Of a DNA stretch of 64,000 nt, positions 18,706 to 63,310 are shown piece by piece (the stretch's first letter is position 1; every line of letters starts with the position of its first letter). A model generated the notes under the pieces. That model worked only from the letters and a program-made list of their open reading frames with translations. It was not told the origin of the DNA and searched no databases. Source of the stretch: Octopus vulgaris (lineage: Eukaryota); assembly GCA_951406725.2 (NCBI GenBank), contig OX597821.1, positions 26,474,001-26,538,000 of the forward strand, read 5' to 3'. The position numbers and the translations under genes are program-made.

Positions 18706-19144
18706 TATATGTAAAATATTCTGCTCAATACCCTAGATTTACTTGTCAGTTGTTTGACCTTAACCAGTTGAGCATGTCCCTTAGTGGGAGCAGAAGTAGT
18801 GGGGAGCATTACAGTCATGTGCTGAGAGTAATTCTTTGGGGTTTGGATAATTTACCTCTGGAAACATGAGTGTTTCGTACAACACTTTTAAACAACCCTT
18901 ATTCAGGGACCTTTTGAGTGGGATGGGCTAGTCGACCTGAAGAAAATTCTAACTGGGCCCCACCTGCAAGGTCATGCACTGTTAATCTTGATATGAGATC
19001 TCTATGTCACGCACATATAGGTGTGATGCATGTGCCTGGTGCACCCTTATCAGATAGGTAACCATCATGAATATACTGGGCTTCGTATATTTTACCCCAG
19101 GCTCACTTTGATGGCAAGCACTGCTTTCTCATTCAGTAATAATA

Positions 19145-19950: not shown

Positions 19951-20016
19951 GTGGTCCTTTGCTGTTCGTAAAACCCGCAGAAGAGAAAGCAGGTCAACCC
20001 CCGACACCGTGAGCAT

Positions 20017-21564: not shown

Positions 21565-21631
<67 letters not shown>

Positions 21632-21656
21632 TAATAATAATAATAATAATAATAAT

Positions 21657-23510
21657 TAATTCTTTTTATTGGCCACAAGGGCTGACACACATGATTAGTA
21701 AACATAAAGGAACAAAACAGGACGAAAGGTTACAAAGGGTTTTGTCCGTTTTTGAAAAAATTCGAGTAAAAACTGTTTAACAACGAAAGATTATAACAAT
21801 GAAAAACTCCCAATAAGCGGAGGCGCTTCGAAAGGTTCCTGGTGGAAAAAAACCCATAAAAGCCAACGGGAGCCTGGTCAAAAGGGGGGTAGAGAGCCCC
21901 TTTCTCCTTTTATAAAACCTTTTTCAATCACAGGCGAAACCTGAGAACTGGTCCATTTATACTGGCCAGTCTCGCACAATTCACCCACCTTTCATAAAAC
22001 TTGCTATCGGACAGCACTCTCCTCTCTAACCTCATCTTTCTTTCAAGTGAAACTTGAAAAAGTTGATGAGGCCTTGACCAAAGATGAAAGTGTCTGACTT
22101 TAGCCCTTTCAAACGGGTCCACCATACAATCTCTTTCCTCACAGCCACTAGGCACAGGAAAACGGCCTCGCCCTCCTTGTTAAAGGAGGACGGCGGGGCA
22201 ATCTTCACTATGGATTCGGCTGATGGCCAGATCCGTCCTATGCGACATAGCTGTTCGGGCACTGGACGAGTGCGTGCAGAACGGTTTCGTCGTCCTGGCA
22301 ACACCTCGGGTATGCCCGGCTGACGGCACTTCCGTGCCGGTAGAGTTTATCCCGAACAGGCAGAGCCCCTCGGTAGCACTGCCAGGCGAGCGACCTCTGG
22401 AAATTATCCATTGGCCCCGGCATGAAAGTCCTTCCGAACAGACCGCTCAGTTCGTTATCATCAACGCCTAGAGTTTCCCCGAGAACGTCGTCGCATTTTT
22501 CCTCCACTAACCCTCTATAGAACGCTAGAGTGGAACTAAAACCGATCGCATTGCCCGCCTGACGGAGGGCGGAGAGAGCTTGATGGCACTCGAGGTGCCA
22601 AGCGCCCTTTCTCGGTCTACGTTTGATCCAGGTCTGCAGCTCTGTCAAAGAGACGAGCTGCGGAAAGTCGCGTCTGACAAAAGACGACCACACCTGATCA
22701 CCGCCTAGGAAACGCTTGAGATGTCGCAGCCTGAGCGCATGTCTGCGCATCAGTAACCACGGCATGCCAAGGCCTCCGTTCAGCGGTCGTTGACAGCAGA
22801 TGGATCGCCTGACCAGTGGCACCTGACCCTTCCACAAAAAGTCGAAGAGCAGGCGTACCAGCTTAGCCAACCAGCGGTTGGGACAAGGGACGACGGTCAA
22901 GCGGTAATAGATGACGAATGCGATGTATGCATTCGCCACCTCCGCTCGACCTTTCAGGGACAGCTTCCTCTCGGCCCATTTCTGGGTGAGATGTGCCACC
23001 CTGCTCGTCACTTCTTCCCAGTTTTTATCCACCTGGAGGTCTGGACCGAACCAGACTCTGAGCAGTTTAACGGGTCCGTCTGTCCAGCGCCCTACGACGC
23101 TGTTGGACGGCATGGGCTTGCCTCTCCAGGTGCCCAGTTGCAAGCCCACAGACTTTTCCGCGTTAATCTTTGCCCTGTCACCGCTTTGTACTCGTTTAGT
23201 GTCTCGCCAATCAGGCCAATGTGCCTGTGGCTCGACACCACCACGGTGACGTCGTCGGCATAGGCAGACACGCTGTTTCCGCCTCCTAGATCGCGCGGGA
23301 TACCCCTCAAAGCCTCCAACTTGCGCAGTAATGGCTCGAGAGTCAATATGTACAAAAGGGAGGAGAGAGGGCATCCTTGGCGGACCGAACGCGAGATGTC
23401 AAACGGTTCCGAAAGGTAACCGTTCACCCGTATCACCGAGCAGATGTTGCTGTATAAAGCAGCGATCCACCCGCGGAAGACTGGACCGAAGCTGGCTGCC
23501 TTGAGAACAG
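21657..23510 (-). mobile_element. 5'-truncated Tx1/L1-clade LINE (RT and C-terminal domain), few frameshifts
   Basis: SVRQGCPLS, AYADDV, W..RKLSLKGRA.VAN, GGLGMP and C..DDETVLHALVQC motifs; flanked on both sides by (TAA)n. Confidence 0.9.
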
Positions 23511-23511
23511 C

Positions 23512-23559
<48 letters not shown>

Positions 23560-24167
23560 TGAATGCATTTATATGTATTATTCATTCGTTCAATACATAC
23601 TAAATTAGTCGGACAAACTATATAAAAATGAACGTAATGTTGAAAGATGCAATTCATTAAGTGTAGGGACAAGTCTAAAAATTTGATGATGATGATGATA
23701 ATGATAATAATGATGACTTTGGTAATAATAACTATCTTGCAACAACCCACATTCGTATATCCAATAGACTTGTTCCAAAAAGCATACAAAAATTTGAATA
23801 GACACGAGACAAAGTTATATAAAAATAATAGGATCTGACACGTCTCACAAATTTAACTTATATTAAAGTTTTCTTAATTACGCAAATAATTACGCAAAAT
23901 ATTTAGATAAGTATATAAAAACAAAGAAAATGTCTAAAGATATGATTTGAAGAAACAGCAAAACAATTACCACAACTTGCTCAAAAACAAGTGAGAAGCC
24001 CTTTGCTTGGGTTAGAGTATCCCACGGCTTTTCCAACTTGCTACGTCACATATTAGAACTTGCTGCACCCAAAGACTACGAGAAGATGTCTTGCGTTGAA
24101 CTTGGAGAAAGAGAATTAAGCCTTCTCAGAAAATTGCTGTTTTACGGAGTTATAGATCATCCGGGTG

Positions 24168-41555: not shown

Positions 41556-41752
41556 AACAACACCAGTTGATAGAAATAAGAAACGTGAAGTTTGTGGTTT
41601 TTCAAAATGTCGAGTTACCTTCATACAAAAGAGGATTCGCAAATTTCGTATGAGACGATTCCTGAAAGATTGCGTAAGAGAGCTGAAAAATATCCAGACA
41701 GAGTAACAATTGTTTGCTATGATGCAGAATTCAAAAGGCACCAAATAACCAT
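41556..41752 (+). CDS. Shared (constant) first coding exon of an ANL-superfamily acyl-CoA synthetase-like (ACSF2-like) gene; coding part 41607-41752
   Basis: Poly-T tract and AG acceptor end at 41555. ATG at 41607 in an AAAATG context reads MSSYLHTKEDSQISYETIPERLRKRAEKYPDRVTIVCYDAEFKRHQIT plus AT, then the consensus donor GTAAGT at 41753. This resembles the SY..TI...L...A..YPDR...T N-terminus of ACSF2-like enzymes. AT|G joins in frame to every downstream cassette. Not in the ORF track. Confidence 0.9.
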
Positions 41753-41834: not shown

Positions 41835-42300
41835 AATAAAGGTAAAGCATGCAGAGTGAAGCCGCTTGGCAAAAATTGACCTTGAACTCTGCTGTGCATA
41901 AGCACTAAGTTTTAACGTTTTAGTTCACCTCCGCTGTTTTCAGCAGTGCTTGGTAGGAAGGTGTGTAGCGTGTGATAGCCGCATTGATCATGACAGAGAA
42001 AGCCGTTATGGCGATACCTGCTCAGAGATCTACACAAAGTTGCAAAAAGTGTATGGAGATGGGTGTATGTGCCGCACATGAGTGTACAGGTGTTCCAGAC
42101 GTTTCCAAGATGGCCAAAAAAATGTCAATATTGATGAACGTTCTGGGAGACCAGCAGAACTGCGAAAAATATCGCAAATGTACGTGAAGCTCTGAAGGGA
42201 AATGGTCGAATCACCATCCGTGAGTTATCGGAGGATAGTGCACATGCACAGCAAAGTTCTGTGCCAAGTAACTTTACTCTGCGTTCTTCAGCTTCGTTTC
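41835..42300 (+). mobile_element. Internally deleted mariner element in the intron after the shared exon
   Basis: Inverted ends (~41838-41915 versus ~42237-42300). Transposase N-terminal remnants (VYG..CM.RT.VY.C..RF..G...I.DERSGRP). Confidence 0.75.
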
Positions 42301-43026: not shown

Positions 43027-44503
43027 GAAAGAGATGTACGATGGAGCTGTGAAGTTCGCAAAGGCTTTGATGAAACTAGGCATTAAAAAAAGAGACAAGA
43101 TTGCATTGTGTGTTCCTAACTGTGTAGAATGGATGAGCTACGATATTGGAATCATGATGACGGGAGCATATTCTATGAGATTAATGTTTGGATTAGCAGA
43201 TATGAAATCTATTATAAAAGGATGTAGTGCTGTTGTATTTGGATCCAAATCTATTTGGGACAATTTCTTATCCATTGCACAAATAAGCGATAATGGAAAA
43301 GTATCTTGCGAAGCGTGTCTAGATTTGAGGTTTGCCATTGATGTGTCCAATACACACAGACCAGCCAATGCTTTATCTGCTGCTAAATTGATGGCAGAAA
43401 TAAGTGACGATGACGAGGTTGAGTTTCCTTACATTGACCCGGAAGATATTGCATCCATCAATCAGACTTCAGGAAGCACTGGTGTGCCCAAAGGTATCTG
43501 TCACAGCCATTTTGAATGCTTAAACTTACCTGATTCAGATTTTAATGAGAGTTTCCGTTTTATCACATTTAGCGGTCGGCCAATGGGATATATTGGAGGA
43601 TATCCTTTGACTGCGGTAACTAGAGGAACATTGCATGTTAGTGGAGACGTAGAAATGTTGAATGATCCGAAGAACCTCGATTTTGTTATAAAGATATGGC
43701 AGAGTGAAGAATGTAACATGGTTGGTGTTGCACCACAAGATGTGAAGCGACTTAGCGACCGCGATTTCAGTGTCCCTATGTTAATGTCAAGTGGAGACAT
43801 GGTTACCCGGGATACAATAGAAAATGCTTTGAAGCTTACAGGTTATTTCATAGTTGTTTATGGAAGTACTGAATCTTTCACGGTATCGTACAAAGTTTAT
43901 ACTCCAGAAAACATTTCAGAACATCAACAAGGATTGCTCGGGCGACCAGTTGCAGGAACAGAAATCAAAATTGTTGACGAGGAGAAGAGGGTTGTAGATA
44001 TTGGAAAGACAGGCTATTTGTATTTTCGAAGTAAATGGATAGCAAAAACACATCTGGACGGCACCTCATGTTTAGAAAATGGTTGGTATCCAACATCAGA
44101 TGTTTGTTACTTAACTGAAGATGGTGACCTCATAATGGTTGGAAGAAGCACTGATTTTATTAAGAAGTGTACTGTAAAATTATCTATTAAACTTATTGAA
44201 GATTACATCGGACGTCATCCGAGTGTAGATGCTGTGGTTGTTGTACCAATCCCTGACCAGGCGGTTGGAGAACGTGTATGTGCGTGCGTTACCCTTCGGC
44301 CAAATCACGAGTTCAATGAAGAAGAATTGAAAAAGTTTTGTACGGAAACAATGCCGCATCCAGATGACTTTGATTGTGTATCGATGCACCCTGATTATAT
44401 TTTATATTTTCCTTCATTTCCATTTTTGCCCAGTGGCAAGTTTGACAGAAAGACTATAGCAAGTTTGGCCCTTAAGAAAATAAAAAAATGTAGTAATAAG
44501 TAA
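43027..44503 (+). CDS. Terminal exon cassette 1, AMP-binding enzyme (540 aa when spliced to the shared exon)
   Basis: Acceptor ttactttacAG|GAAAGAGATG. Open frame with P-loop QTSGSTGVPKG, YGSTE, GWYPTSD, GRxxDxIK and SGKFDRK. AATAAA at 44578-44583. Confidence 0.92.
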
Positions 44504-45058
44504 AAATTACCAAGATTAACAAACGTGTGTTTTAGATTTCCATGTTTAACATGTTAACGTGCTAAGGTTTCCTTCTAAATAAAAGCGACATGCTTCGTTA
44601 AATATATACATTTATATGTGTATGCTTACATACATATATACATTCATACATACATAGATATATATATACACACACACACATACATACATACATACATTCA
44701 TACATACATACATACATACATACATACACATATATATATATATATATATATGAATATAGGCCCGTAATGTCAAAGACTTATCCAATCTTTCCGTTCATTA
44801 AACTAATACACCTGTTCGTTGTACCGTCACCTGTCGTTGTCTTTTGTTTTTTGTACATTTGAACTATGTATTACATACTTTCACCTGCTTATCACAGTTT
44901 GATCCTACCTGACTGAACTTCCACCACTTATGGGCCGTCATCTCTCTCTTACCTTTTCCTCGAACCTTAGGTATCTATCCTCATCCACCTAACCATCAAC
45001 CCAAATGGATTACCATTGGGAGTTTCTACATTTTCCAACTCTACCACCATGGATCTTA

Positions 45059-45742
45059 GGTGTGTAACGTGTGATATTCGCATTGACCATGTCGGATGAA
45101 GCTGTTATGGCGAAACCCGCTCAAGATCTACAAAATTTGCAAAAGGTATATGGAGAGGGGTGTATGTGCCGCACACGAGTGTACAAGTGTTCCAGACGTT
45201 TCCAATATGGCCGAAAAAATGTCGATATTGATGAACGTTCTGGGAGACCAGCAGAACTGAGAAAAATATCGCAAATGTGCGTGAAGCTTTGAGGGAAAAT
45301 CATCGAATCACCATCCATGAGTTATGGGGCGCTGTGTAGATTAGTTACGGTTCAGTTTAGTCCGTTATCACCGACGATTTGGGTATGATACGCGTATCTC
45401 CCAAGATTGTGCGAAAACTGTTTTCAGCAGACCAAAAAGACACTCGGGTTTCAGTTGAATAAGATCTCTTTGACTGTGTCGAGAACGATGAAAACTTTTT
45501 TGAAAACTTTGCGTAGGCCTTTGAGCAGGTCTCACCAAGCTTTTGGCAAAACTTGATGCAGATTCTCTGCTCAACTTTCTCTATCATGGTCAGAGCGACG
45601 ATCACACACTACACACTTTCCTTCCAGGAACTGTTGTAAACAGGAACTAAGCTAGTATGTTAAAACTTAGTGCACATGCGCAGCAGAGTTCAAGGTCATT
45701 CTGTGCTAAGTAGCTTTACTCTGCGTTCTTCAGCTTCGTTAC
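45059..45742. mobile_element. Rearranged mariner relic between cassettes 1 and 2
   Basis: 45059-45325 parallels 41960-42230; 45500-45742 is an inverted 5' end encoding MIEKVEQRICIKFCQKLG. Confidence 0.8.
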
Positions 45743-46459
45743 TATAGCAAGACTTGATACTTATTGATCAGGCAACGCATGACAGAGCAGGTGACGTGCA
45801 ACGTTCATTGTACCTGTGTTTGTATGCCAATATATTTTCTTGTGTGTAGAAGCATAAACATTCATACTCGAGTCACGCTCATCTTAAATGTTTGGCGTAC
45901 TTATGGTCTATTAGAAATGGAAATCGATGTACATTGTTTATAAAGGAGGCTTACTGGTAGAGAAGTTGAAGCATCGGAAACAATGCCTCGTGGTATTTGC
46001 TGCTACTTTCTGTTTCTGAATTTAAATCGGATTGAGATGATTGTCATCCTTCCAAGATTAGTAAAAAGTTTCAGTCCCTCGTGGTAGATTTGTAGAACTG
46101 GGAAAATGTTGGCTCACATATCTTACAGGATTTGTTCTGTAAATATGTTTTTGCGTTCCGATTTTGTATCTCGAAACACTCTACTTGGCCGTAGATTTAA
46201 TCCTCCAAATGGTATCACTATCTGGCATCTTAGATGTCTGTAGCAGAGTCCGTTATTGTTCATACATTGAGGCAGACTCCAGATTGAGGATATCTACACC
46301 AATTTCTGGGCAGTCTTGCTTGCTAGATCAGTCAATTATCAACAAAATTCTCTGAGTCCTCTCAAGGAAATGCAAAAATGTTAAATATATATAATCTACT
46401 ATATTATGAAACTATGGATTTAGGAGCATATATGTTAAATATGTCACTTTACTTTACAG

Positions 46460-47918
46460 GAAAGAGATGTACGATGGAGCTGTGAAGTTCGCAAAGGCTT
46501 TGATGAAACTAGGCATCGAAAAAGGAGACAAGATTGCATTTTGTGTTCCTAACTGTGTGGAATGGATGAGCTACGATATTGGAATCATGATGACGGGAGC
46601 ATATTCTATAAGATTAATGTTTGGATTAGCAGATATGAAATCTATTATAAAAGGATGCAGTGCTGTTGTATTTGGATCCAAATCTATTTGGGACAGTTTT
46701 TTATCCATTGCACAAATAAAGGAAAATGGAAAAGTATTTTGCGAAGCGTGTCCAGATTTGAAGTTTGCCATTGATGTGTCCAATACACACAGACCAGCCA
46801 ATGCTTTATCTGCTGCTAAATTGATGGCAGAAATAAGTGACGATGACGAAGTTGAGTTTCCTTACATTGACCCAGAAGATATCGCATCCATTAATCAGAC
46901 TTCAGGAAGCACTGGTGTGCCCAAAAGTATCTGTCACAGCCATTTTGAATGCTTAAACTTACCTGATTCAGATTTTAATGAGAGTTCTCGTCTTATCAGG
47001 TTTAGTGGTCGGCCTATGGGATATATTGTAGGATATCCTTTGAATGTGGTAACCAGAGGATCATTGCATGTCAGTGGAGACGTAGAAATGTTGAATGATC
47101 CGAAGAACCTCGATTTTGTTATAAAGATATGGCAGAGTGAAGAATGTAACATGGTTAATGTTGCACCACAAGATGTGAAGCGACTTAGCGACCGCGATTT
47201 CCGTGTCAATATGATAACGTCAGGTGGAGACATGATTACCCGAGAAACAATAGAACATGCCTTGAAGGTTGCAGATTCCTTCTGTGTTGGTTATGGAAGT
47301 ACTGAATCTATTTTGGTATCTTCCAAAGTGTTTACTCTAGAAAACATTTCAGAACATCAACAAGGAATGCTCGGGCGACCAATTGCAGGAACGGAAATCA
47401 AAATTGTTGACGAGGAGAAGAGGGTCGTGGATATTGGAAAGACAGGCTATTTGTATTTTCGAAGTAAACATATAGCAAAAACATATCTGGATGGTACTTC
47501 GTGTTTAGAAAATGGTTGGTATCCAACATTAGATATTTGTTATTTAACTGAAGATGGTGATCTCATAATGGTTGGAAGAAGCACAGATCTTATTAAGAAG
47601 TGTACAGTAAAGCTATCTATTAAACTTATTGAAGATTACATCGGACGTCATCCGAGTGTAGATGCTGTGGTTGTTGTACCAATCCCTGACCAGGCAGTTG
47701 GAGAGCGTGTATGCGCGTGCGTTACCGTTCGGCCAAATCACGAGTTCAATGAAGAAGAATTGAAAAAGTTTTGTACGGAAACAATGCCGAATCCAGATAA
47801 CTTTGATTGTGTATCGATGCACCCTGATTATATTTTATATTTTCCTTCATTTCCACTTTTGGCCAGTGGCAAGTTTGACAGAAAGACTATAAAATGTTTG
47901 GCCCTTAAGAAGATATAA
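46460..47918 (+). CDS. Terminal exon cassette 2, AMP-binding enzyme (534 aa spliced)
   Basis: Same acceptor and phase; intact ORF with TSGSTGVPKS, YGSTE and SGKFDRK; AATAAA at 48014-48019. Confidence 0.88.
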
Positions 47919-48767
47919 AAAATATAGTAATAAGTAAATATAAATTACCAAGATTAACAGACGTGTTTTAGTTTTCCATGTTTAACATGTTAACGTGCTA
48001 AGGTTTCCTTCTAAATAAAGGCGACATGCATCGTTAAATATATACATTTATATGTGTGTCTGCTTAAATACATATATACATTCATACATACATAGATATA
48101 TACACACATACATACATACATACATAGATACATACGTATATATATATATGAATATAGGCCCGTAATATCAAAGACTTATCCAATCTTTCCGTGCATTAAA
48201 CTAATACACCTGTTCGTTGTTCCGTCACCTGTCTTTGTCTTTTGTTTTTTGTAAGTTTGAACTATGTATTACTTACTGTCACGGAAACAAAGCCACGTGG
48301 TATTTGTTGCTACTTTCTGTTTCTGAATTCAAATTCGATTGAGTTGATTATCATCCTTCCAAGATTAGTAAAAAGTTTCAGTCCCTGGTGGTAGATTTGT
48401 AGAACTGGGAAAATGTTGGCTCACATATCTTGCAGGATTTGTTTCTGTAAATATATTTTTGCGTTCCGATTTTGTATCGCGAAACACTCTACTTGGCCGT
48501 AGATTTAATCCTGAAACAGGTATCACCATCTGGCATCTTAGGTGTCTGTAGCAGAGTCCGCTCTTGTGCATACATTGGGTCAGTCTCCGGATTGAGGATA
48601 TCTACATCAATTTCTGGGCAGTTTTGCTTGCTAGATCAGTCAATTATCAACAAAATGCTCTGAGTCCTCTCAAGGAAATGCAGAAATATTAAGTATATAT
48701 AATCTGCTATATTATGCAACTATGTACTTAGGAGCATATATGTTAAATATACTACTTTTCTTTACAG

Positions 48768-50238
48768 GAAAGAGATCTACGATGGAGCTGTGAAGTTCGC
48801 AAAGGCTTTGATGAAACTAGGCATTGAAAAAGGAGACAAGATTGCATTTTGTGTTCCTAACTGTGTAGAATGGATGAGTTACGATATTGGAATCATGATG
48901 ACTGGAGCATATTCTATAAGATTAATGTTTGGATTAGCAGATATGAAATCTATTACAAAAGGATGTAGTGCTGTTGTATTCGGATCCAAATCTATTTGGG
49001 ACAGTTTCTTATCCATTGCACAAATAAAAGAAAATGGAAAAGTATCTTGCGAAGCGTGTCCAGATTTGAAGTTTGCCATTGATGTGTCCAATACACACAG
49101 ACCAGCCAATGCTTTATCTGCTGCTAAATTGATGGCAGAAATAAGTGACGATGACGAGGTTGAGTTTCCTTACATTGACCCAGAAGATATTGCATCCATT
49201 AATCAGACTTCAGGAAGCACTGGTGTGCCCAAAGGTATCTGTCACAGCCATTTTGAATATGTAAACTTACCTGATTCAGATTTTATTGAGAGTTCTCGTC
49301 TTATCATGTTTAGTGGTCGGCCAATGGGATACATTGGAGGATATCCTTTGAATGTGGTAACCAGAGGATCATTGCATGTTAGTGGAGACGTAGAAATGTT
49401 GAATGATCCGAAGAACCTCGATTTTGTTATAAAGATATGGCAGAGTGAAGAATGTAACATGGTTGGTGTTGCACCACAAGATGTGAAGCGACTTAGCGAC
49501 CGCGATTTCCGTGTCAATATGATAATGTCAGGTGGAGACATGATTACCCGAGAAACAATAGAACATGCCTTGAAGGTTGCAGATTCCTTCTTAGTTGGCT
49601 ATGGAAGTACTGAATCTATTTTCGTATCTTACAAAGTGTTTACTCTAGAAAACATTTCAGAACATCGACAAGGAATGCTCGGGCGACCACCTGCAGGAAC
49701 AGAAATCAAAATTGTTGACGAGGAGAAGAGAGTTGTGGATACTGGAAAGACAGGCTATTTGTATTTTCGAAGCAAATATATAGCAAAAACATATCTGGAT
49801 GGTACTTCATGTTTAGAAAATGGTTGGTATCCAACATCAGATATTTGTTACTTAACTGAAGATGGTGATCTCATAATGGTTGGAAGAAGCACAGATCTTA
49901 TTAAGAAGTGTACAGTAAAGCTATCTATTAAACTTATTGAAGATTACATCGGACGTCATCCGAGTGTAGATGCTGTGGTTGTTGTACCAATCCCTGACCA
50001 GGCCGTTGGAGAACGTGTATGCGCGTGCGTTACCCTTCTGCCAAATCACGAGTTCAAAGAAGAAGAATTGAAAAAGTTTTGCACGGAAACAATGCCGGAT
50101 CCAGATAACTTTGATTGTGTTTCGATGCACCCTGATTCTATTTTATATTTTCCTTCATTTCCACTTTTGGCCAGTGGCAAGTTTGACAGAAAGACTATAG
50201 CAAGTTTGGCCCTTAAGAAAATAAAAAACATGTTGTAA
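48768..50238 (+). CDS. Terminal exon cassette 3, AMP-binding enzyme (538 aa spliced)
   Basis: Acceptor tttctttacAG|GAAAGAGATC, so the internal ATG of the other copies is ATC here. Intact ORF; AATAAA at 50519-50524. Confidence 0.88.
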
Positions 50239-50298
50239 TAATTAAATTAATTTACCAAGATTAACAAACGTGTGTTATAGTTTTCCATGTTTAACATG

Positions 50299-50488
50299 GC
50301 ACAAATAAACGATAATGGAAAAGTATGTTGCGAAGCGTGTCCTGATTTGAAGTTTGCCATTGATATGTCCAATACACACAGACCAGCTAATGCTTTATCT
50401 GCTGCTAAATTGATGGCAGAAATATGTGACGATGATGCAGTTGAGTTTCCTAACATTGACCCAGAAGATATTGCATCCATCAATCAGA
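50299..50488 (+). pseudogene. ~190 bp internal fragment of the enzyme exon inserted in the 3' UTR of cassette 3
   Basis: Translates AQINDNGKVCCEACPDLKFAID...IDPEDIASINQ and interrupts the UTR motif TTTAACATG-TTAACGTGCT that is continuous in copies 1, 2, 5 and 6. Confidence 0.9.
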
Positions 50489-50665
50489 AGATGTTAAATG
50501 TGCTACGCTTTCCTTCTGAATAAAGGCGACATGCTTCGTTAAATATAGATTTATATGTGTGTATGCTTACATACATATATACATTCATACATACATAGAT
50601 ATATACACACACATATTTACATATACACATACATACATACATACACACATACATACCTAGATACA

Positions 50666-50701
<36 letters not shown>

Positions 50702-51329
50702 TATATAAATATGAATATAGGCCCGTAATATCAAAGACTTATCCAATCTTTCCGTGCATTAAACTAATACACCTGTTTGTTGTTCCGTCATCTGTCTTTG
50801 TCTTTTGTTTTCTGTACGTTTGAACTATGTATTACTTACTGTCACGGAAACAATGCCACGTGGTATTTGTTGCTACTTTCTGTTTCTGAATTCAAATCCG
50901 ATTGAGTTGATTATCATCCTTCCAAGATTAGTAAAAAGTTTCAGTCCCTGGCGGTAGATTTGTAGAACTGGGAAAATGTTGGCTCACATATCTTACAGGA
51001 TTTGTTCTGTAAATATATTTTTGCGTTCCGATTTTGTATCTCGAAATACTCTACTTAGCCGTAGATTTAATCCTGAAACAGGTGTCACCATCAGGCATCT
51101 TAGATGTATGTAGCAGAGTCCGCTCTTGTGCATACATTGGGTCAGTCTCCGGATTGAGTATATCTACATCAATTTCTGGTTAGTTTTGCTTGGTAGATCA
51201 GTCAATTATCAACAAAATTCTCTGAGTCCTCTCAAGGAAATGCAAAAATGTTAAATATATATAATCTACTATATTACGAATCTATGAATTTAGGAGCATA
51301 TATGTTAAATATGCTGCTTTTCTTTACAG

Positions 51330-52797
51330 GAAAGAGATGTGCGATGGAGCTGTGAAGTTCGCAAAGGCTTTGATGAAACTAGGCATTGAAAAAGGAGACA
51401 AGATTGCATTTTGTGTTCCTAACTGTGTAGAATGGATGAGCTACGATATTGGAATCATGATGACTGGAGCATATTCTATGAGATTAATGTTTGGATTAGC
51501 AGATATGAAATCTATTATAAAAGGATGTAGTGCTGTTGTATTTGGATCCAAATCTATTTGGGACAGTTTCTTATCCATTGCACAAATAAGCGATAATGGA
51601 AAAGTATCTTGCGTAGAGTGTCCAGATTTGAAGTTTGCCATTGATGTGTCCAATACACACAGACCAGCCAATGCTTTATCTGCTGCTAAATTGATGGCAG
51701 AAATAAGTGACGATGACGAGGTTGAGTTTCCTTACATTGACCCAGAAGATATTGCAACAATTATGCAGACTTCAGGAAGCACTGGTGTGCCCAAAGGTAT
51801 CTGTCACAGCCATTTTAATTACTTAAACTTTGCTGCTTCAGATTTTAATGAAAGTTATCAGTTTACCATATTTAGTGGTCGGCCAATGGGATATATTGGA
51901 GGATATCCTTCGACTGTGCTAACCAGAGGATCATTGCATATCACTGGAGATGTAGAAATGTTGAATGATCCGAAGAACCTCGATTTTGTTATAAAGATAT
52001 GGCAGAGTGAAGAATGTAACATGGTTGGAGTTGCACCCCAAGATGTAAAGCGACTTAGCGACCGCGATTTCCGTCTCAATATGCTAATGTCAGGTGGAGA
52101 CATGATTACCCGAGATATAATAGAAAATGCTTTGAAGGTTGCAGATTCATTCTTTGTTGGTTATGGAAGTACTGAATCTATTTTTGTATCTTACAAAATG
52201 TTTACTCCAGAAAACATTTCAGAACATCAACAAGGAATGATCGGGCGACCAGTTGGAGGAACAGAAATCAAAATTGTTGACGAGGAGAAGAGAGTTGTGG
52301 ATATTGGAAAGACAGGCTATTTGTATTTTCGAAGCAAATATATAGCAAAAACATATCTGGATGGCACTTCATGTTTAGAAAATGGTTGGTATCCAACATC
52401 AGATATTTGTTACTTAACTGAAGATGGTGATCTCATAATGGTTGGAAGAAGCACAGATTTTATTAAGAAGTGTACAGTAAAGCTATCTATTAAACTTATT
52501 GAAGATTACATCGGACGTCATCCGAGTGTAGATGCTGTGGTTGTTGTACCAATCCCTGACCAGGCAGTTGGAGAACGTGTATGCGCGTGCGTTACCCTTC
52601 TGCCAAATCACGAGTTCAATGAAGAAGAATTGAAAAAGTTTTGTACGGAAACAATGCCGGATCCAGATAACTTTGATTGTGTTTCGATGCACCCTGATTA
52701 TATTTTATATTTTCCTTCATTTCCACTTTTGGCCAGTGGCAAGTTTGACAGAAAGACTATAGCAAGTTTGGCCCTTAAGAAAATAAAAAACATGTAG
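51330..52797 (+). CDS. Terminal exon cassette 4, AMP-binding enzyme (537 aa spliced)
   Basis: Same acceptor and phase; intact ORF; AATAAA at 53082-53087. Confidence 0.88.
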
Positions 52798-52860
52798 TAA
52801 TAATTAAATTAATTTACCAAGATTAACAAACGTGTGTTATAGTTTTCCATGTTTAACATG

Positions 52861-53052
52861 GCACAAATAAACGATAATGGAAAAGTATGTTGCGAAGCGT
52901 GTCCTGATTTGAAGTTTGCCATTGATGTGTCCAATACACACACAGACCAGCTAATGCTTTATCTGCTGCTAAATTGATGGCAGAAATAAGTGACGATGAC
53001 GCAGTTGAGTTTCCTAACATTGACCCAGAAAATATTGCATCCATCAATCAGA
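52861..53052 (+). pseudogene. Same exon fragment in the 3' UTR of cassette 4 (2-nt CA insertion)
   Basis: Same junctions as 50299-50488. Confidence 0.9.
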
Positions 53053-53260
53053 AGATGTTAACGTGCTACGCTTTCCTTCTGAATAAAGGTGACATGCTTC
53101 GTTAAATATAGGTTTATATGTGTGTATGCTTACATACATATATACATTCATACATACATAGATATATACACATACATATACACATACATACATACATACA
53201 TACATACATACATACCTAGATACTCACATACATACCTAGGTACATACATACATACATACA

Positions 53261-53296
<36 letters not shown>

Positions 53297-53921
53297 TATA
53301 TATGAATATAGGCCCGTAATGTCAAAGACTTATCCAATCTTTCCGTTCATTAAACTAATACACCTGTTCGTTGTACCGTCACCTGTCTTTGTCTTTTGTT
53401 TTTTGTAAGTTTGAACTATGTATTACTTACTGTCACGGAAGCAATGTCTCGTGGTATTTGTTGCTACTTTCTGTTTCTGAATTCAAATCCGATTGAGTTG
53501 ATTATTATCCTTCCAAGATTAGTAAAAAGTTTCAGTCCCTGGTGGTAGGTTTGTAGAACTGGGAAAATGTTGGCTCACATATCTTGCAGGATTTCTTCTG
53601 TAAATATATTTTTGCGTTCTTATTTTGTATCTCGAAACACTCTACTTGACCGTAGATTTAATCCTGAAACAGGTATCACCATCTGGCATCTTAGATGTCT
53701 GTAGCAGAGTCCGCTCTTGTGCATACATTGGGGCAGACTCCAGATTGAGGATATCTACATCAATTTCTGGTTAGTTTTGCTTGCTAGATCAGTCAATTAT
53801 CAACAAAAATGCTCTGAGTCCTCTCAAGGAAATGCAGAAATATTAAGTATATACAATATACTATATTATGAAACTATGTACTTAGGAGCATATATGTTAA
53901 ATATACTACTTTTCTTTACAG

Positions 53922-55388
53922 GAAAGAGATGTACGATGGAGCTGCGAAGTTCGCAAAGTCTTTGATGAAATTAGGCATTGAAAAAGGAGACAAGATTGCA
54001 TTTTGTGTTCCTAACTGTGTAGAATGGATGAGCTACGATATTGGAATCATGATGACGGGAGCATATTCTATAAGATTAATGTTTGGATTAGCAGATATGA
54101 AATCTATTATAAAAGGATGCAGTGCTGTTGTATTTGGTTCCAAATCTATTTGGGACAGTTTCTTATCCATTGCACAAATAAGCGATAATGGAAAAGTATC
54201 TTGCAAAGCGTGTCCAGATTTGAAGTTTGCCATTGATATGTCCAATACACACAGACCAGCCAATGCTTTATCTGCTGCTAAATTGATGGCAGAAATAAGT
54301 GACGATGACGAGGTTGAGTTTCCTTACATTGACCCAGAAGATATTGTAGCAATCAATCAGACTTCAGGAAGCACTGGTGTGCCCAAAGGTATCTGTCACA
54401 GCCATTTTGAATGCTTAATCTCACATGATTCAGATTTTAATGAGAGTTCTCGTCTTATCATGTTTAGTGGTCGGCCAATGGGATATATTGGAGGATATCT
54501 CCTGAATGTGGTAACTAGAGGATCATTGCATGTCAGCGAGACGTAGAAATGTTGAATGATCCGAAAAACTTCGATTTTGTTATAAAGATATGGCAGAGTG
54601 AAGAATGTAACATGGTTGGTGTTGCACCACAAGATGTGAAGCGACTTAGCGACCGCGATTTCCGTGTCCCTACGTTATTGTCAAGTGGAGACATGATTAC
54701 ACGGGATACAATAGAAAATGCTTTGAAGGTTGCAGATTCATTCTTAGTTGTTTATGGAAGTACTGAATCTTTCACGGTATCGTACAAAGTTTTTACTCTA
54801 GAAAACATTTCAGAACATCAACAAGGAATGCTCGGGCGACCAGTTGCAGGAACGGAAATCAAAATTGTTGACGAGGAGAAGAGGGTTGTGGATATTGGAA
54901 AGACAGGCTATTTGTATTTTCGAAGTAAGCATATAGTAAAAACACATCTGGATGGTACTTCGTGTTTAGAAAATGGTTGGTATCCAACATCAGATGTTTG
55001 TTACTTAACTGAAGATGGTGATCTCATAATGGTTGGAAGAAGCACTGATTTTATTAAGAAGTGTACAGTAAAATTATCTATTAAACTTATTGAAGATTAC
55101 ATCGGACGTCATCCGAGTGTAGATGCTGTGGTTGTTGTACCAATCCCTGACCAGGCAGTTGGAGAACGTGTATGCGCCTGCGTTACCCTTCGGCCAGATC
55201 ACGAATTCAATGAAGTAGAATTGAAAAAGTTTTGTACGGAAACAATGCCGCATCCAGATGTCTTTGATTGTGTATCGATGCACCCTGATTATATTTTATA
55301 TTTTCCTTCATTTCCACTTTTGGCTAGTGGCAAGTTTGACAAAAAGACTATAGCAAGTTTGGCCCTTAAGAAAATATCAAAAATGTAG
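53922..55388 (+). pseudogene. Terminal exon cassette 5, frameshifted (pseudo-exon or sequencing error)
   Basis: Acceptor intact. A 1-nt deletion near 54537 (AGCGAGAC versus AGTGGAGAC in paralogs) splits it into ORFs 53929-54546 and 54549-55388. The conserved AATAAA is AATATA (55473-55478). Confidence 0.8.
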
Positions 55389-55556
55389 TAATAAGTAAAA
55401 ATTACCAAGATTAACAAACGTGTATTATAGTTTTCCATGTTTAACATGTTGACGTGCTAAGGTTTCCTTCTGAATATAGGTGACATGCTTCGTTAAATAT
55501 ATACATTTATATGTGTGTATGCTTACTTACATATATACATTCATACATAGATATAT

Positions 55557-55597
<41 letters not shown>

Positions 55598-55869
55598 CAT
55601 ATATACATAGATACATACATTTATTCTTACATACATATATAGACACATACATATATACACTCATACATACATACATACATACATACATACATACATACAT
55701 ACATACATACATACATACATACATACATACATACACTCACACACACACATATATTTCATTCGATTAAGACTATAATCTCGAAGGTGATGCCCCTTGAAAC
55801 AAATAAACGATACAAAATACCACACAGATATGTAAGTATTTGTGTGTGTGTCTGTGTGTGTTTATTCAT

Positions 55870-56725
55870 CAAGAATAGTAGCTGTTAGATCATGTGAACT
55901 CAATAAAGCCATCCATACAGTTCACAATGGAAGAGGAAAAAGACCATCAGCTAGCATTCCTGGCCTTATTAATAACACGCACCAAGTATGGATTCAGGAC
56001 ATCCGTATACCGCAAGCCGACTTTCACTGGACGATACCTCAACTTCAAATCCCACCATCCATATAGTGTAAAGAAAGGGATTGCTCAGTGCCTAAAACAT
56101 CGAACAAAGAATATAAGTAGCGATCATGATACACACCACTAAGAAATGATCAAGCTCAACAACAATCTTTTAAGCAACAACAATCCCAAAAGCATACTCT
56201 CCACTCCAATTATGAAGAAAAGAGAAGATGAAACGAATAAGCTGTCCACAGTCTCTCTGTCCTATGTGAAAGACCTCTCCGAAAAGATACAAAAGATATG
56301 CGGCCCATATGACATCAGGAAAGTATTCAAGAGTAATACAACACTTCGCAAATATCTCCTTCGAGTAAAACCACCAATAGAAGAGAATATGACTAAGAAC
56401 TGCGCGTACTCCATCCCATGCAGTTGTGGTAGGTTATACAAAGGCGAAACATGCCGCCCCCTCAAAATAAGTGTAGAGGAACATCACAAAGCTGTGGCAC
56501 GTGGAGATATTGATAAATCGGGTATAGCTGATCATGTATGGAAAAATGGAGACCACTTCTTCCTGTGGGATGAAGTTAAAATAATAGACAGTGAACACCA
56601 CTGGAAAATACGAAAACTAAAAGAAGCAGCAAATATACTAGGAAACAACAAGCTCCTAAACAGACCGAGTGCAGATATGAACAGCATATGGGAACCGGTA
56701 TTAAGGAAGGATAATAGAATATTAG

Positions 56726-56768
<43 letters not shown>

Positions 56769-56945
56769 TCGAAAAATACCTTAGGAATGAGAACCCAGGT
56801 TCGAAATTTCCACAAGACACCCGATGAAGGCTGGAGGGTATATCAGCCGAAACGGTGTGTTAACAACAAACAAGATGAGGACAAATATCCGTCAGTTGTA
56901 AATAACGTAAATAATGTACATAATTCATCATCTCTTATATATAGA
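55870..56945 (+). mobile_element. Penelope-like element 3' part (RT C-terminus and GIY-YIG endonuclease) with terminal repeat remnant
   Basis: VYRKPTFTGRYLNFKSHHP..VKKG, AYSIPCSCGRLYKGET.R.L....EEH and KS.IADH. Confidence 0.88.
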
Positions 56946-57339
56946 ACTGAAGAATAGGATTCACAGTGACTACGAAGTTTCGGCTAGCTAAGCCATCATT
57001 GGGTAGTCCAACTCTTCGAAGTCACTATTTTTGTTAAAAAATAACATATTTACACTTTTCAGAATTATGGAGTAACCTTTCAGATTAATGTAAAAATGTT
57101 TTCATTACACTTAAATATTAAAATATACATTTACCTATACTTCACCTACACTTTTGAACCATCATGTCATCTGATGTGGCTATTTAAACCGGACAATGTT
57201 TTGAAAAGACACCTACATAGATTGTATATCCAATTTGGGCCACCAAGAGCTGTAGTTAAGTTCTGATGTTTTTAGATCTTAAAATGTCGTTTGAGGCCTC
57301 CGTTAGATTTGTAGACCTTCTGGAATAACATATAGGCAC

Positions 57340-58200
57340 TATAGGTGGTGGAAATACTTCTACGAATTCAAAGTGCAGCACAAGCATTTGCTGGTTTGGC
57401 GTCACGCTTTTGGCGCCAACGACATGTAAATAACAATACAAAATTGGCTCTTTACAAATCATTTGTCTTACCATCCCTGGTGTATTCTTTTGAAACGTGG
57501 ACTTGTTATGAAAGACATTTCATACTGTTAGAACAATTCCACCAAAAATGCCTTCATCGCATTTTAAACATTAAATAGAGTTCTTTTACTCCAAAACAGA
57601 TGTCCTTGCGTCAGCTGGCATCACCTCAATTAAAGCGATGATTCGGAAAACCCAAATGAGATGGAGTGGCCATATTGTTCGAATGGCGCAAGAACGCACA
57701 CACACACATACATACATATATGCATACATACATACACAACACCCCGTGGACTAATTTTTAAAGGTCTGTCAGGAATTCAGCCTATCAGTCTGAAGAAGAC
57801 CAAAGTGCTGGGCCAAGGTGCTAAGCACCTTTCTCCACCATCAATATCACCATCACCATCAACAACTACAAGCTGGAAGTAGTCCATGAATTCACCTACC
57901 ATCACTGATGACCTCTCCATGGACCCTGAGATCAAAGGGAGAATTGAACGAGCGTCCTCCATATTTGCCGGGCTCACAAAGAGAGACTAGAAAAATAGAA
58001 AACTAGCTGCAAACACTAAGATTGCTGTCTATACGGCGTGCGTCCTTAGCACGCTACTTTACGGCAGTGAGACATAGAGCTTCTACTCCAGATAGGAGCG
58101 GCGTCTTAACGTCTTCCACCTTCGTAATTTGAGACGCATCTCGGATAACAAGTGGACCGACCACATCATCAACATCGAAGTCCTCAGCTGCACCAGGATA
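57340..58200 (+). mobile_element. Two RTE LINE 3' fragments
   Basis: TKLALYKSFVLPSLVYSFETWT...LEQFHQKCLHRILNI and the TKIAVYTACVLSTLLYGSET-like segment at ~58015-58075. Confidence 0.8.
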
Positions 58201-58450
58201 CCCAGACTGTGTATAAAATTTCAAGAAAATCGGTTGAAAACTTTAAAAGTTATGGCAGAAAATAACATTTATACGAGAATTTGCATTGAAATGTCCTATC
58301 GATTTTATTCTCAGATTTACACACTTTTTGCAGCTACCTTCAGTTTTTTTAAGCCTTGTAACTGAACACGGGAGGCTGGGCCTCCAGTGTTGCCTCTCCC
58401 GATGCATTTAAAGCCATGAAATTTTTAGGCTGGCTCGGGTAAAATAACAC

Positions 58451-58493
<43 letters not shown>

Positions 58494-59262
58494 CACATAT
58501 ATATATATATAAAGTTAATCCAAACAAGAAAGCACAAAAAAAGCACAAAAAAACACAACAACGCGAGGACGTGGAACAAATATAGTATTATTGGACGCTC
58601 AGGAAAGAAGGAGGGTTTAACGTTTCGAGCGGAGCTCTTCGTCGGAAACATAGGAGAAGGAAAGATCCAGAGAAGGGAAGACAGAGGAAAAAAAATCGTC
58701 AACGGTACACACGAGGTCACATTATATATATATATGTGAATATATATGTGTGTGTGTGTGTGTTTGTATCTGTGTATTTTCATTTGTGTTTGTTTCTTCC
58801 ACTGCTTGACAACTGGTGTTGAATTATTTACGTCCTCGTGACCTAGCGGATCAGCAAAGAGACGGATTGAATAAAAACAGTACTGTTGCTGATTTTATCG
58901 ACTTCAAGCTAATGTCTCAGTATGGTTGCTTTCAAATGACTGAAAAAACTAAAAGATAAAAGCTATAGACATACATACATACATACATACAAACAAACAC
59001 ATGTGTGTATGTTCAGTTGGTTAGAGGGCGTGGGGTGAGGGTGGAGTCGAAGAGTACGGTGGGGGGAGTTTACTGTGGTGTTAGTGAATTCAGAATTTAC
59101 TATCTTGACCATTGATATCGCTGAGATTTCTGTTGGTAGATTAAACTATTATCATCTAAGATATCTGCACTTTCATAATATAATATAGAAATGTAAATAA
59201 CTTATATCATGAAACTACTTGTTTAGCAACATACATGTTAAATATGTCACTTTTCTTTGCAG

Positions 59263-60727
59263 GAAAGAGATGTGCGATGGAGCTGTGAAATTCGCAAAGG
59301 CTCTGATGAAACTAGGCATTGAAAAAGGAGACAAGATTGCATTTTGTGTTCCTAACTGTGTGGAATGGATGAGCTACGATATAGGCATCATGATGACGGG
59401 AGCATATTCTATGAGACTGATATTTGGATTAGCAGATATGAAATCTATTATAAAAGGATGCAGTGCTGTTGTATTTGGTTCCAAATCTATCTGGGACAAT
59501 TTTTTATCCATTGCACAAATAAGCGATAATGGAAAAGTATCTTGCGAAGCGTGTCCTGATTTGAGGTTTGCCATTGATGTGTCTAATACACACAGACCAG
59601 CCAATGCTTTATCTGCTGCTACATTGATGGCAAAAGTAAGCGACGATGTCGCAGTTGAGTTTCCTTACATTGACCCAGAAGATATTGCATCCATCAGTCA
59701 GACTTCCGGAAGCACTGGTGTGCCCAAAGGTATTTGTCACAGCCATTTTGAATACTTAAACAACAAGGATTTAGATTTTAAAGACACTTCTCTTGTCATA
59801 TTTAGCAGTCGGCCAATGGGATATGGTGGAGGATATCCTTTGTCTGTGCTAACCAGAGGATCATTGCATGTCACTGGAGATGTAGAAATGTTGAATGATC
59901 CGAAGAACCTCGATTTTGTTATAAAGATATGGCAGAGTGAAGAATGTAACATTGTTGGTGTTGCACCACAAAATGTGAAGCGACTTAGCGACCGCGATTT
60001 CCGTGTCAATATGATAATGTCAGGTGGAGACATCATTACCCGGGATACAATAGAAAATGCTTTGAAGGTTGCAGATTCATTCATAGTTGTTTATGGAAGT
60101 ATTGAATCTTTCTACATAACTAATAGAATTTTTACACTAGAAAACATTTCGGAACATCAACAAGGAATTTTGGGTCGACCACTTGAAGGAACGGAAATCA
60201 AAATTGTTGACGAGGAGAAGAGAGTTGTGGATATTGGAAAGACAGGCTATTTGTATTTTCGAAGTAAATGGATAGCAAAAACATATCTGGATGGCACCTC
60301 ATGCTTAGAAAATGGTTGGTATCCAACATCAGATATTTGTTACTTAACTGAAGATGGTGATCTCATAATGGTTGGAAGAAGCACAGATTTTATTAAGAAG
60401 TGTACAGTAAAATTATCTATTAAACTTATTGAAGATTACATTGGACGTCATCCGAGTGTAGATGCTGTGGTTGTTGTACCAATCCCTGACCAGGCAGTTG
60501 GAGAACGTGTATGCGCGTGCGTTACCGTTCGGCCAAATCACGAGTTCAATGAAGAGGAATTGAAAAAGTTTTGTACGGAAACAATGCCGAATCCAGATAA
60601 CTTTGATTGTGTATCGATGCACCCTGATTATATTTTATATTTTCCTTCATTTCCACTTTTGGCCAGTGGCAAGTTTAACAAAAAGATTATAAAATGCTTG
60701 GCCTATCAGAAAATTAAAGAAATGTAG
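59263..60727 (+). CDS. Terminal exon cassette 6, AMP-binding enzyme (536 aa spliced); most divergent copy
   Basis: Acceptor ttttctttgcAG|GAAAGAGATG. Intact ORF, one codon shorter in the first variable block, with YGSIE; AATAAA at 60811-60816. Confidence 0.88.
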
Positions 60728-61499: not shown

Positions 61500-63310
61500 T
61501 ATATTTGATTTACATTAACAGCTACTGTTTCATCAGGGATTCCAGATGCCTTAAGGATTTCTACCGTCATATCTCTGTGTAGAGAGTCAAAGGCATTGGA
61601 AAAATCAACAAAGAACAAAACTGCATTAAGGTTTTTGGCTCGTACCTCTTCCAACATCCTCCTAACTATGAGAATTTGACCTGATGTAAAGCGGCTCTTC
61701 CCGAATACATTTTGATTTTTCCTAAGAACTCTTTCAATTTGAGGTTGGATTCGATTGAGTAGCAATGCATTGTAAATCTTCGCTGCAATTGGTGTTAATG
61801 TAATTCCTCTGTGGTTTAAGGCAAGGCCCAGATTCCCTTTTAGCGGAGAAAGGCAGAATACATCCTCCTGTTCAGACTTTTATCTCGCTTTGATGATATA
61901 CTGAGTTGCACGTGTTGAGAAGAATGTCATTGAAATCGCCAGACTTCAGGAGGGATGTCATCAAATCCTGCAGCCTTTCGGTTTTTGGTCTTCCTCAGTA
62001 CGACTTCAAGCTCTTATATCGAGAAGGGCCCCTGCTTGATATCTAGGACCTCCTCAACTATACGATGGATGAGCTGGTTTGATGTATTCGGTGATTTCCC
62101 AAGAAGGTTTTGAAAATGGTCTTTTCACTTACTCAGTCCCTCCTGTGGCCTAGAGGCTTTCAACGTCTCTTTGGAAGATTTCTCCCGACTACTCACTTGG
62201 TTTACTGTCTGCCACGTCAAAGAAGACGCTTTGTTGTCTGCTGCGTTTTTGATTTTGTCGATTTGACTTTGAATGTATTTTTGCTGTTTCATCTGATATA
62301 GTACGTCAAGTTCTTTCAGTACCTTCGTTTTTCTGTTTAAGTTTCTTCTCGTAGGATTCTTTTGTACTGTTTGGTTATTTCCTTTATGTTAATTCTTTTT
62401 GCAAGCACTGTGTCGCTTTCCCAAGGGGCTCTTCGTTTCAATTTTGTTCTCAAAGGGATGCATTTTTCAGCAGCCTCATAAAGACCTTGGACGAAGTTAA
62501 GATATATTGGTTTGGGGTGTGATCTTCGATTGAATCTTGTATCGCATGGAAGCGATTTCTGAGTTTGATCGCGAAATCATTTCGGACTTTCTCGTTGTAT
62601 GTCAGAATATGCCAATTTTAGGGCGGTCTTGAGGTTGCTTTTATCGTATACCTGAAGCTTAGATGTTATTACTCGATGGTCATATGATACACCAAAGAAA
62701 GTGTTGCATGCTTCACAGTTGTGGCAGCTGTTAATCCAATTTATGTTCATGACAAGATAGTATAGCTGAGCTTTGAATCCGTTTGGGGAAGTATGGGTCC
62801 ACTTCTTTCCCGATCGCTTCTGAAAATAAAGTGTTCAGGCATTGAAGTTTGTTTTCTACCAAGAAGTGCTCTAAGTATTCTCCATTTCACTTTGAGGTTT
62901 TGATGGAACGAGTATTTATGATGGGGTATTTATCATGGCCTATTGTGCATTCATATCTCCGCCAATGATGAGGATGTTGTGTTTTCTTATAGATCGTACA
63001 AGAGACGATAAATCGCTGACATTTGTTGGGCTGTAGCAGCGGGAGACTTTAGTGGAAGGTTTACCGTTGAAATTGGCAACTATTATTCTAGATGTTATTT
63101 TCTCAATGCTGGAGAAGTAAAGAACTTGTGAGTAATGTGTTGCTGTGGACACCAAATCATGGTACCACAGTGGTTGGAAGACCCCGAAAGACCTATATAG
63201 AACAGCTTGCAGAACATGCTGGATTCCAAGTTAAAGACCTGAACACATTAATGAAAGATTGGGAGGGATGAAGAGAGGTAGTCAGGCAGTCCCGGGCAAT
63301 TAGCCTGACT
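61500..63310 (-). mobile_element. Decayed RTE-X-like LINE (endonuclease and RT N-terminus)
   Basis: YSPTN, LIIGGDMNAQ and LLNRIQP.IE.VLRKNQN.F...R.T..QI...RR..E....KNL.AVL.FVDFS.AFDSLHR. Confidence 0.8.

Follow-up and report, generated by a model that had tools for sequence, protein, structure and literature searches.

One shared first exon and seven tandem terminal exons in Octopus vulgaris: a probable set of adenylating enzymes with diversified predicted pockets

Why would a gene carry seven closely similar enzyme exons in tandem behind a single first exon? This layout was found in and beside a 64,000-nucleotide stretch of Octopus vulgaris DNA, here called the window (assembly GCA_951406725.2, contig OX597821.1; G000:C8:26474001-26538000, the coordinate system also used for nearby loci). 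Six long plus-strand frames lie in the window, each encoding an AMP-binding enzyme. The array consists of one coding exon of 48 codons followed by seven terminal exons (cassettes) of ~1.46 kb, six in the window and one beyond it. We consider it likely that the array is alternatively spliced and polyadenylated, and that it encodes different substrate preferences through diversified pocket residues: the copies differ mostly at predicted pocket positions, so the gene likely makes several enzymes of differing preference by alternative splicing. Four observations carry this reading, namely the anatomy of the locus, intact catalytic motifs in six cassettes, change concentrated at sites equivalent to a known specificity code, and discordant trees for pocket and flanks.

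Exon 1 (41556..41752, plus strand) starts at ATG 41607, contributes 48 codons plus 2 nt and ends at a GT donor (41753). Its translation is the N-terminus of database protein P0045, and an AG preceding 41556 implies a non-coding exon further upstream. All seven cassettes have a phase-matched AG acceptor and close with their own stop, and a poly(A) hexamer was present within the 360 nt scanned for six of the seven. A second copy of exon 1 was not found between the donor and the next paralog. The seven other full-length paralogs found in the assembly each have their own exon 1, versus one exon 1 for seven cassettes, and a genome search with exon 1 gave eight matches of eight scored; both counts are lower bounds.

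An earlier reading of the letters alone (the sequence-only reading) had placed the differences between cassettes 1–6 in the substrate-binding pocket. A frameshift in cassette 5 and the seventh cassette outside the window had escaped it. Cassette 1 (43027..44503) is intact, with the pocket code IGP/LGMSVTVK and a pocket region identical to Octopus sinensis isoform X1; its variable core spans 43490..43927 (codons 155–300), and the same codons form the core in every cassette. Cassettes 2 (46460..47918; IVP/LNTGGLVK) and 3 (48768..50238; IGP/LGMGGFVK) are intact and have O. sinensis X5 and X2 as partners. Intact cassette 4 (51330..52797; IGP/SGMGGFVK) reads NYLNFAA in the helix after the P-loop. 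Cassette 5 (53922..55388) is broken in the assembly by a 1-nt deletion near 54538 leading to a stop at 54544-54546, and AATAAA or ATTAAA was not found within the 360 nt scanned in its 3′ flank. Cassette 6 (59263..60727; GGP/LGMGVYIK) is intact, with a one-codon deletion common to O. sinensis X4 and Octopus bimaculoides X1. All six lie on the plus strand. Cassette 7 (L002, G000:C8:26549004-26550471), 11 kb past the window, is intact and lacks an exon 1 of its own.

The cassettes fall within the ANL superfamily (acyl-CoA synthetases, adenylation domains of nonribosomal peptide synthetases (NRPS) and luciferases) by domains, motifs and fold. P0045 matched Pfam AMP-binding (PF00501, 148.8 bits, cut-off 29.9) and AMP-binding_C (PF13193, 36.7 bits, cut-off 24.5). 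G198/T200/G201/P203/K204, E331, D407 and R422 were invariant in 47 aligned sequences, with K520 nearly so. The P-loop and what we take to be the A5 glutamate, A7 aspartate, A8 arginine and A10 lysine were present in all seven cassettes; the A5 motif of cassette 6 reads YGSIE instead of YGSTE. A structure model (predicted local distance difference test, pLDDT, 86.8) showed the two-domain ANL fold, with Foldseek matches at E 5e-38 to luciferase and aryl-acid ligases. Structural comparison gave a top Z of 40.4 (root-mean-square deviation (rmsd) 4.2, 485 aligned) and a match to 1amu at Z 38.0 (rmsd 4.2, 479 aligned).

Two features of NRPS amino-acid adenylation domains were missing. Asp235, which binds the alpha-amino group in those domains (PMC11253843, available text), is replaced by Ile in six cassettes and by Gly in cassette 6. 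A carrier or condensation domain was not found, as P0045 contains only the two Pfam families and each cassette stops just after AMP-binding_C. The amino-acid code therefore cannot predict octopus substrates.

Is the variation truly concentrated? The blocks quoted in the sequence-only reading (after the P-loop, around A4, VNV/VGV, before GD and around A5) all occur as written in cassettes 1–6, and the invariant KLSIK...VCACVT stretch was confirmed in those six, cassette 7 carrying one change there. Substitutions were counted tree-free over the seven cassettes with codons 140–310 as the core. The core held 126 nonsynonymous and 60 synonymous changes and the flanks held 66 and 67, respectively (Fisher P 0.0012), bearing out the claim that substitutions cluster above chance. 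Nonsynonymous changes in the core far exceeded expectation (66.8, P 5e-18). Synonymous changes did not cluster equally, though they were mildly enriched (46.3 expected, P 0.013); from flanks to core, nonsynonymous change rose 3-fold and synonymous change 1.4-fold. Mean pairwise proportions of nonsynonymous and synonymous differences (pN/pS, 21 pairs) were 0.031/0.111 for codons 1–139, 0.106/0.171 for codons 140–310 and 0.033/0.130 for codons 311–485. Within the 36 codons of the quoted blocks the synonymous rate was 0.46 versus 0.41 outside and the nonsynonymous rate 0.55 versus 0.14, a ratio biased because those blocks had been chosen by eye.

Do the variable sites coincide with the pocket? 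The ten code positions of GrsA-PheA were taken from the available text of PMC11253843. They were mapped through alignments with homologues of solved structure (~20% identity) instead of 3D contacts, and were anchored by motif on HMMER alignments to LgrA and DhbE. The transfer of PheA numbers onto LgrA motifs is our assumption. Position 239 has two possible registers, both of which were tested. All nine non-lysine positions were variable. Overall, 133 of 485 sites varied (P 7e-6 for the comparison), as did 44 of 98 in the span of the code positions themselves (P 5e-4). The six intact cassettes alone varied at 8 or 9 of the 9. By alignment, then, the proposed match between variable sites and predicted pocket positions holds at every code position examined.

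The same sites varied in other octopods. Depending on register, 8–9 of the 9 positions varied among five O. sinensis proteins (the chimeric models X3 and X6 dropped), 7–8 among four O. bimaculoides proteins and 6–7 among three Argonauta proteins (within-span P 0.016–0.076). Although the Argonauta genes are a separate clade, each with a first exon of its own, the same sites vary (odds ratio 4.6 in the core, P 9e-6). Argonauta P0010, P0011, P0056 and P0057 and O. bimaculoides P0046 are whole-gene duplicates with their own first exons that likewise show pocket-biased divergence. In O. vulgaris every second residue of the strand 322–327 is variable. Ser301 and Val322 would narrow the pocket of cassette 1; Val236, Asn278 and Thr299 would reshape that of cassette 2, as would Gly235 with Tyr330 that of cassette 6.

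Whether selection drove these changes was addressed with codon models (GY94/F3x4, in a custom implementation, not PAML). Over codons 155–300 the M2a model improved on M1a with a likelihood-ratio test (LRT) statistic of 22.1, placing 6% of sites in a class with omega (dN/dS) 6.6. The top-ranked core sites were 167, 168, 180, 275 and 285; codon 167 is presumably the equivalent of firefly luciferase R218. In the N-terminal flank the same comparison showed no selected class. By simple count, the code sites carried 18 nonsynonymous changes, where the local synonymous rate predicts 10.7 (P 0.025). The possibility that recombination by itself produced the site-model signal was considered and rejected, with none of 45 neutral mosaic simulations exceeding 5.99; these used five fully shuffled blocks and modelled neither multi-nucleotide changes nor real starting codons.

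Several results weigh against selected pocket diversification, besides the mild synonymous rise noted above. Just one of the top sites, 285 (position 330), belongs to the classical code; most lie outside it. As a fixed class, the nine code sites had omega 1.53, not significantly above 1 (P 0.15). When double and triple changes were allowed the LRT was lower: 8.8 (P 0.012) overall, 11.5 for the six in-window cassettes and 5.9 (P 0.051) once broken cassette 5 was dropped, leaving the six intact ones. Doublets numbered 4 among 62 polymorphic intron sites. In the C-terminal flank a single site, codon 337, also scored as selected (LRT 17.4), so the site test is not pocket-specific. Cassettes 3 and 4 have an identical ten-residue code in one register and are one residue apart in the other; they differ chiefly in the helix after the P-loop, and the classical code thus misses some differences. 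A reverse mosaic was seen in the C5 paralogs q2 and q3 (L018-L020, G000:C5:98839400-98857755), with no amino-acid differences over codons 136–269 and many in the flanks. Conversion alone can thus draw block patterns, and blocks in themselves prove little. Codon 337 (~49777-49779 in cassette 3) switches between W, H and Y outside the mapped pocket, and this may be homoplasy from conversion.

Positive selection on the pocket core is accordingly likely, not firm. For the diversifying selection proposed in the sequence-only reading, a site class with dN/dS above 1 was recovered, but the signal shrinks to P 0.012–0.051 under multi-nucleotide changes and the code sites alone are not significant. Its contrast between pocket and remainder stands as a nonsynonymous excess in the core, part of which is accounted for by gene conversion in the flanks.

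These weaknesses lead to an alternative in which the cassettes are expressed but redundant, their pockets drifting under relaxed constraint while conversion erases flank differences, with no adaptive change of substrate. The overall core omega of 0.63, the code-site class, the borderline signal in the six intact cassettes and genuine mosaicism (nearby-site compatibility test, P 5e-4), together with the reverse mosaic in the C5 paralogs, all agree with it. We nevertheless regard it as unlikely. Between O. vulgaris and O. sinensis, cassettes 1 and 7 show no differences over codons 140–310 but differ at 3 and 8 flank sites, respectively, and O. bimaculoides has retained pocket types 6 and 7. The excess at code sites by simple count also speaks against redundancy, and variation at alternate residues cannot arise from conversion tracts.

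How, then, did uniform flanks and diverse cores come to coexist? In core protein trees cassette 6 joined O. sinensis X4 and O. bimaculoides X1 (bootstrap 88) and XP_014777840 was the partner of cassette 7 (bootstrap 93), whereas flank trees grouped by species (bootstrap 77). Approximately unbiased (AU) tests used 19 sequences, excluding Argonauta, X3 and X6, and took the cassette constraint from the core tree; they rejected the species grouping for the core (p 0.018) and the cassette grouping for the flanks (p 0.003). A Sawyer-type tract test was nominally significant in 11 of 21 pairs on all sites (P<0.05, uncorrected) and in none of the 21 on silent sites alone (best P 0.068). The tract-test evidence for conversion is weak, and the case for conversion rests on the AU tests, shared markers and the compatibility test. 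Judged from these trees, near-identity of the flanks is partly homogenisation by gene conversion, with pocket types persisting across species. The sequence-only reading missed this component.

Shared markers place the array in time. A decayed retroelement-like remnant upstream of cassette 6 (55927..56730, plus strand) serves as a synteny marker, with 85% identity to the N-terminal part of O. bimaculoides model P0055; the ab initio O. bimaculoides X1 model starts in this same remnant. It had no Pfam match, and the retroelement label is our assumption. A transposon-like remnant between exon 1 and cassette 1 (41959-42231), duplicated before cassette 2 (45058-45328) and presumably of mariner type, is contained in the O. 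bimaculoides X2 model and occurs in model P0049. Core-tree orthology, the shared cassette 6 deletion and the shared remnants together make it likely that the shared-exon array is older than the divergence from O. bimaculoides and that cassettes 1–5 expanded afterwards.

The same orthology disposes of an assembly artefact. Collapsed haplotypes or duplicated contigs could in principle yield copies with 89–96% DNA identity, but one-to-one cassette orthologs in O. sinensis and O. bimaculoides, shared intronic markers and the lack of any N in the region leave it with next to no probability. It was rejected on the cross-species orthology of the cassettes.

Are the downstream cassettes used? Splicing was judged from anatomy and RefSeq models. 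In O. sinensis, four of six isoform models join exon 1 to whole cassettes: X1, X5, X2 and X4 correspond to exon 1 plus the equivalents of cassettes 1, 2, 3 and 6. Both O. bimaculoides models, X1 and X2, join one exon 1 to different whole cassettes. Cassettes 2, 3, 4 and 6 are each distinguishable from all others within 10–100 nt of the acceptor. Private derived changes in the flanks of cassettes 2, 3, 4, 6 and 7 comprised 31 synonymous and 26 nonsynonymous changes (omega 0.29, P 5e-6), and purifying selection was significant singly for cassettes 6 and 7 only (P 0.001–0.005), with cassette 2 borderline.

The evidence on usage also has its contrary side. From private flank changes, purifying selection was not shown individually for cassettes 3 and 4. 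Cassette 5 is broken, and its private changes (2 synonymous, 7 nonsynonymous) look neutral. The O. sinensis models X3 and X6 (P0052, P0053) each fuse parts of two cassettes at about codon 196, so the RefSeq models are imperfect; both are probably annotation artefacts. RefSeq gives O. sinensis cassette 7 a local upstream 5′ exon and not exon 1. The earlier claim that the downstream cassettes are functional is supported singly for cassettes 6 and 7, which are under purifying selection of their own; cassette 5, broken in this assembly, runs counter to it. The first half of X6 resembles cassette 5 and ends short of its break point.

Two further accounts of usage were weighed. Cassette 1 could be the only one used with exon 1, the later copies being non-productive or serving as conversion donors of pocket variants to the active copy. 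The first poly(A) signal (~44578) does lie ahead of all later cassettes, and the broken cassette 5, orphan exon fragments and annotated chimeras also fit this account. Of the six downstream cassettes, five remain intact and keep both acceptor and poly(A) hexamer; together with private purifying selection in cassettes 6 and 7 and shared-exon models in two species, this makes the account very unlikely. Alternatively, downstream cassettes could have their own promoters, either acquiring exon 1 by trans-splicing, for which Drosophila mod(mdg4) and lola provide precedent, or yielding N-terminally truncated proteins. This would explain the local 5′ exons annotated for O. sinensis cassette 7, one of which maps 3.1 kb upstream with further similar copies nearby, and would avoid a cis route to cassette 7 that must read through five cassette ends with poly(A) hexamers. 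Against it, the cassettes all follow one another in cis on a single strand, and exon 1 encodes predicted strands and a helix of the N-terminal domain (residues 1–50, pLDDT 84–96), so truncated products would likely misfold. An internal ATG present at codon 3 of the other cassettes is moreover absent from cassette 3 (ATC). We hold this account to be highly improbable.

Alternative splicing of a diversified array remains the reading that we favour, and a course of events can be proposed for it. Tandem duplication of the large last exon only would have left one start exon facing seven enzyme exons. Each mRNA would join exon 1, completing the N-terminal domain, to one cassette, chosen by competition among 3′ splice sites and poly(A) sites. 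The product would adenylate a hydrophobic acyl or aryl acid with ATP, as suggested by the absence of Asp235 and by small residues at 236, 301 and 322. Gene conversion would hold the scaffold constant, and selection would maintain pocket types and make them more diverse. In the animal, the enzymes would most plausibly activate acids from the diet or from xenobiotics, or else serve in making small molecules.

The adenylate would then pass to CoA or to another nucleophile. The A8 glycine is Thr in all 22 octopod rows of the C8 clade and in two chiton rows, Asp in wsluc4 and Ala in P0019, and is retained in bivalve-type rows and 16 of 17 environmental rows; the A8 motif lies at ~49908-49925 in cassette 3. 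In coenzyme A (CoA) ligases this glycine contacts the beta-alanine of pantetheine (PMC4667280, available text). The Thr thus departs from one CoA-ligase feature and makes CoA ligation uncertain, which by itself does not show loss of CoA use. The sequence-only reading had missed this substitution.

The closest known relatives are the firefly squid (Watasenia scintillans) proteins wsluc1-4. In a quick tree, with long-branch warnings elsewhere, the cassettes fall with wsluc4, apart from other molluscan homologues, in a 25-row clade (Shimodaira–Hasegawa-like approximate likelihood-ratio test, SH-aLRT, 100); wsluc1-4 belong to this clade. Identity to wsluc4 is 36%, and wsluc4 is a long branch, not a specific sister of the octopus cassettes. 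The ACSF2 label of the cassettes is an automatic annotation, and our tree contained no vertebrate ACSF2. In the available text of PMC4899746, identity between wsluc and ACSF2 was 24–26%, XP_014790470 (an O. bimaculoides member of the cassette group) was placed with the squid crystal proteins, and light emission by wsluc with coelenterazine disulfate had not been shown recombinantly as of that report. It also lists two wsluc2-like squid transcripts (81000_c2_seq1 and seq2) arising by splicing or from paralogs; they could reflect a similar shared-exon layout. The available texts of PMC4899746 and PMC7708342 do not describe a shared-exon array or pocket diversification.

More speculatively, the array could be a splice-selected library of adenylation enzymes that make a family of small molecules in cephalopods and need no CoA. 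With the A8 glycine lost across the clade, the adenylate would go to an amine or to oxygen, and the selected pocket positions would be those that let the squid branch accept coelenterazine disulfate. We think this distinctly unlikely; if true, the array would be a living series for how a luciferase arises.

How new is this arrangement? Enzyme variants from a shared 5′ exon and exon arrays with selected pockets are already known; an ANL array of terminal exons would be a reversed UGT1A-like architecture in a mollusc. Anopheles GSTD1 reportedly has four alternative 3′ exons. Enzyme variants of Anopheles gambiae GSTS1 and SOD3 come from splicing different 3′ exons onto one shared 5′ exon (PMC1797171, available text). 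The octopus locus shows the same elements (one constant exon, phase-matched acceptors, own stops). It differs from GSTS1 in enzyme family, and each alternative exon encodes ~90% of a 540-residue ANL enzyme with the whole active site, in seven copies. Vertebrate UGT1A, Gcnt2 and protocadherin clusters likewise combine tandem variable exons with a constant part. For UGT1, the available text of PMC1885805 describes a hypervariable acceptor pocket with positively selected codons; it reports gene conversion in protocadherin clusters and conversion as not predominant in UGT1. Polarity is reversed, as variable exons come first and are promoter-chosen in those clusters, whereas the octopus variable exons come last and are likely chosen by 3′ splice or poly(A) site. 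The specificity codes of NRPS GrsA-PheA and of 4CL (4-coumarate-CoA ligase) and aryl-acid ligases (PMC11253843 and PMC7419483, available texts) concern the same fold, and equivalent positions vary in octopus; unlike in the classical code, position 320 and the helix following the P-loop also hold strongly selected octopus sites. A prior description of the locus was not found in literature searches, with subscription journals outside their coverage.

The finding is less surprising in that tandemly duplicated enzymes often diverge mainly in their pockets. The array nevertheless provides six intact ANL enzymes that differ mainly in the predicted pocket, a natural and nearly isogenic panel from which a specificity code for animal acyl adenylation could be read, and testable non-luminous relatives of the candidate luciferases of the firefly squid.

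Minor features complete the window. Cassettes 3 and 4 are each followed by an orphan exon fragment (194–196 bp), inserted after the stop and ahead of the homologous poly(A) hexamer. The first (50295..50488, plus strand) is a 194-bp copy of exon codons ~80–146 in the 3′ flank of cassette 3; the second (52857..53052, plus strand), in the 3′ flank of cassette 4, has a 2-nt insertion. A tRNA was not found in the window. Decayed mobile elements with RVT_1, zf-RVT (LINE-like) and Tc3-type transposase HTH matches lie at 19132-23568 (minus strand), 11077-11472 (minus), 13848-14231 (plus) and 61502-61879 (minus).

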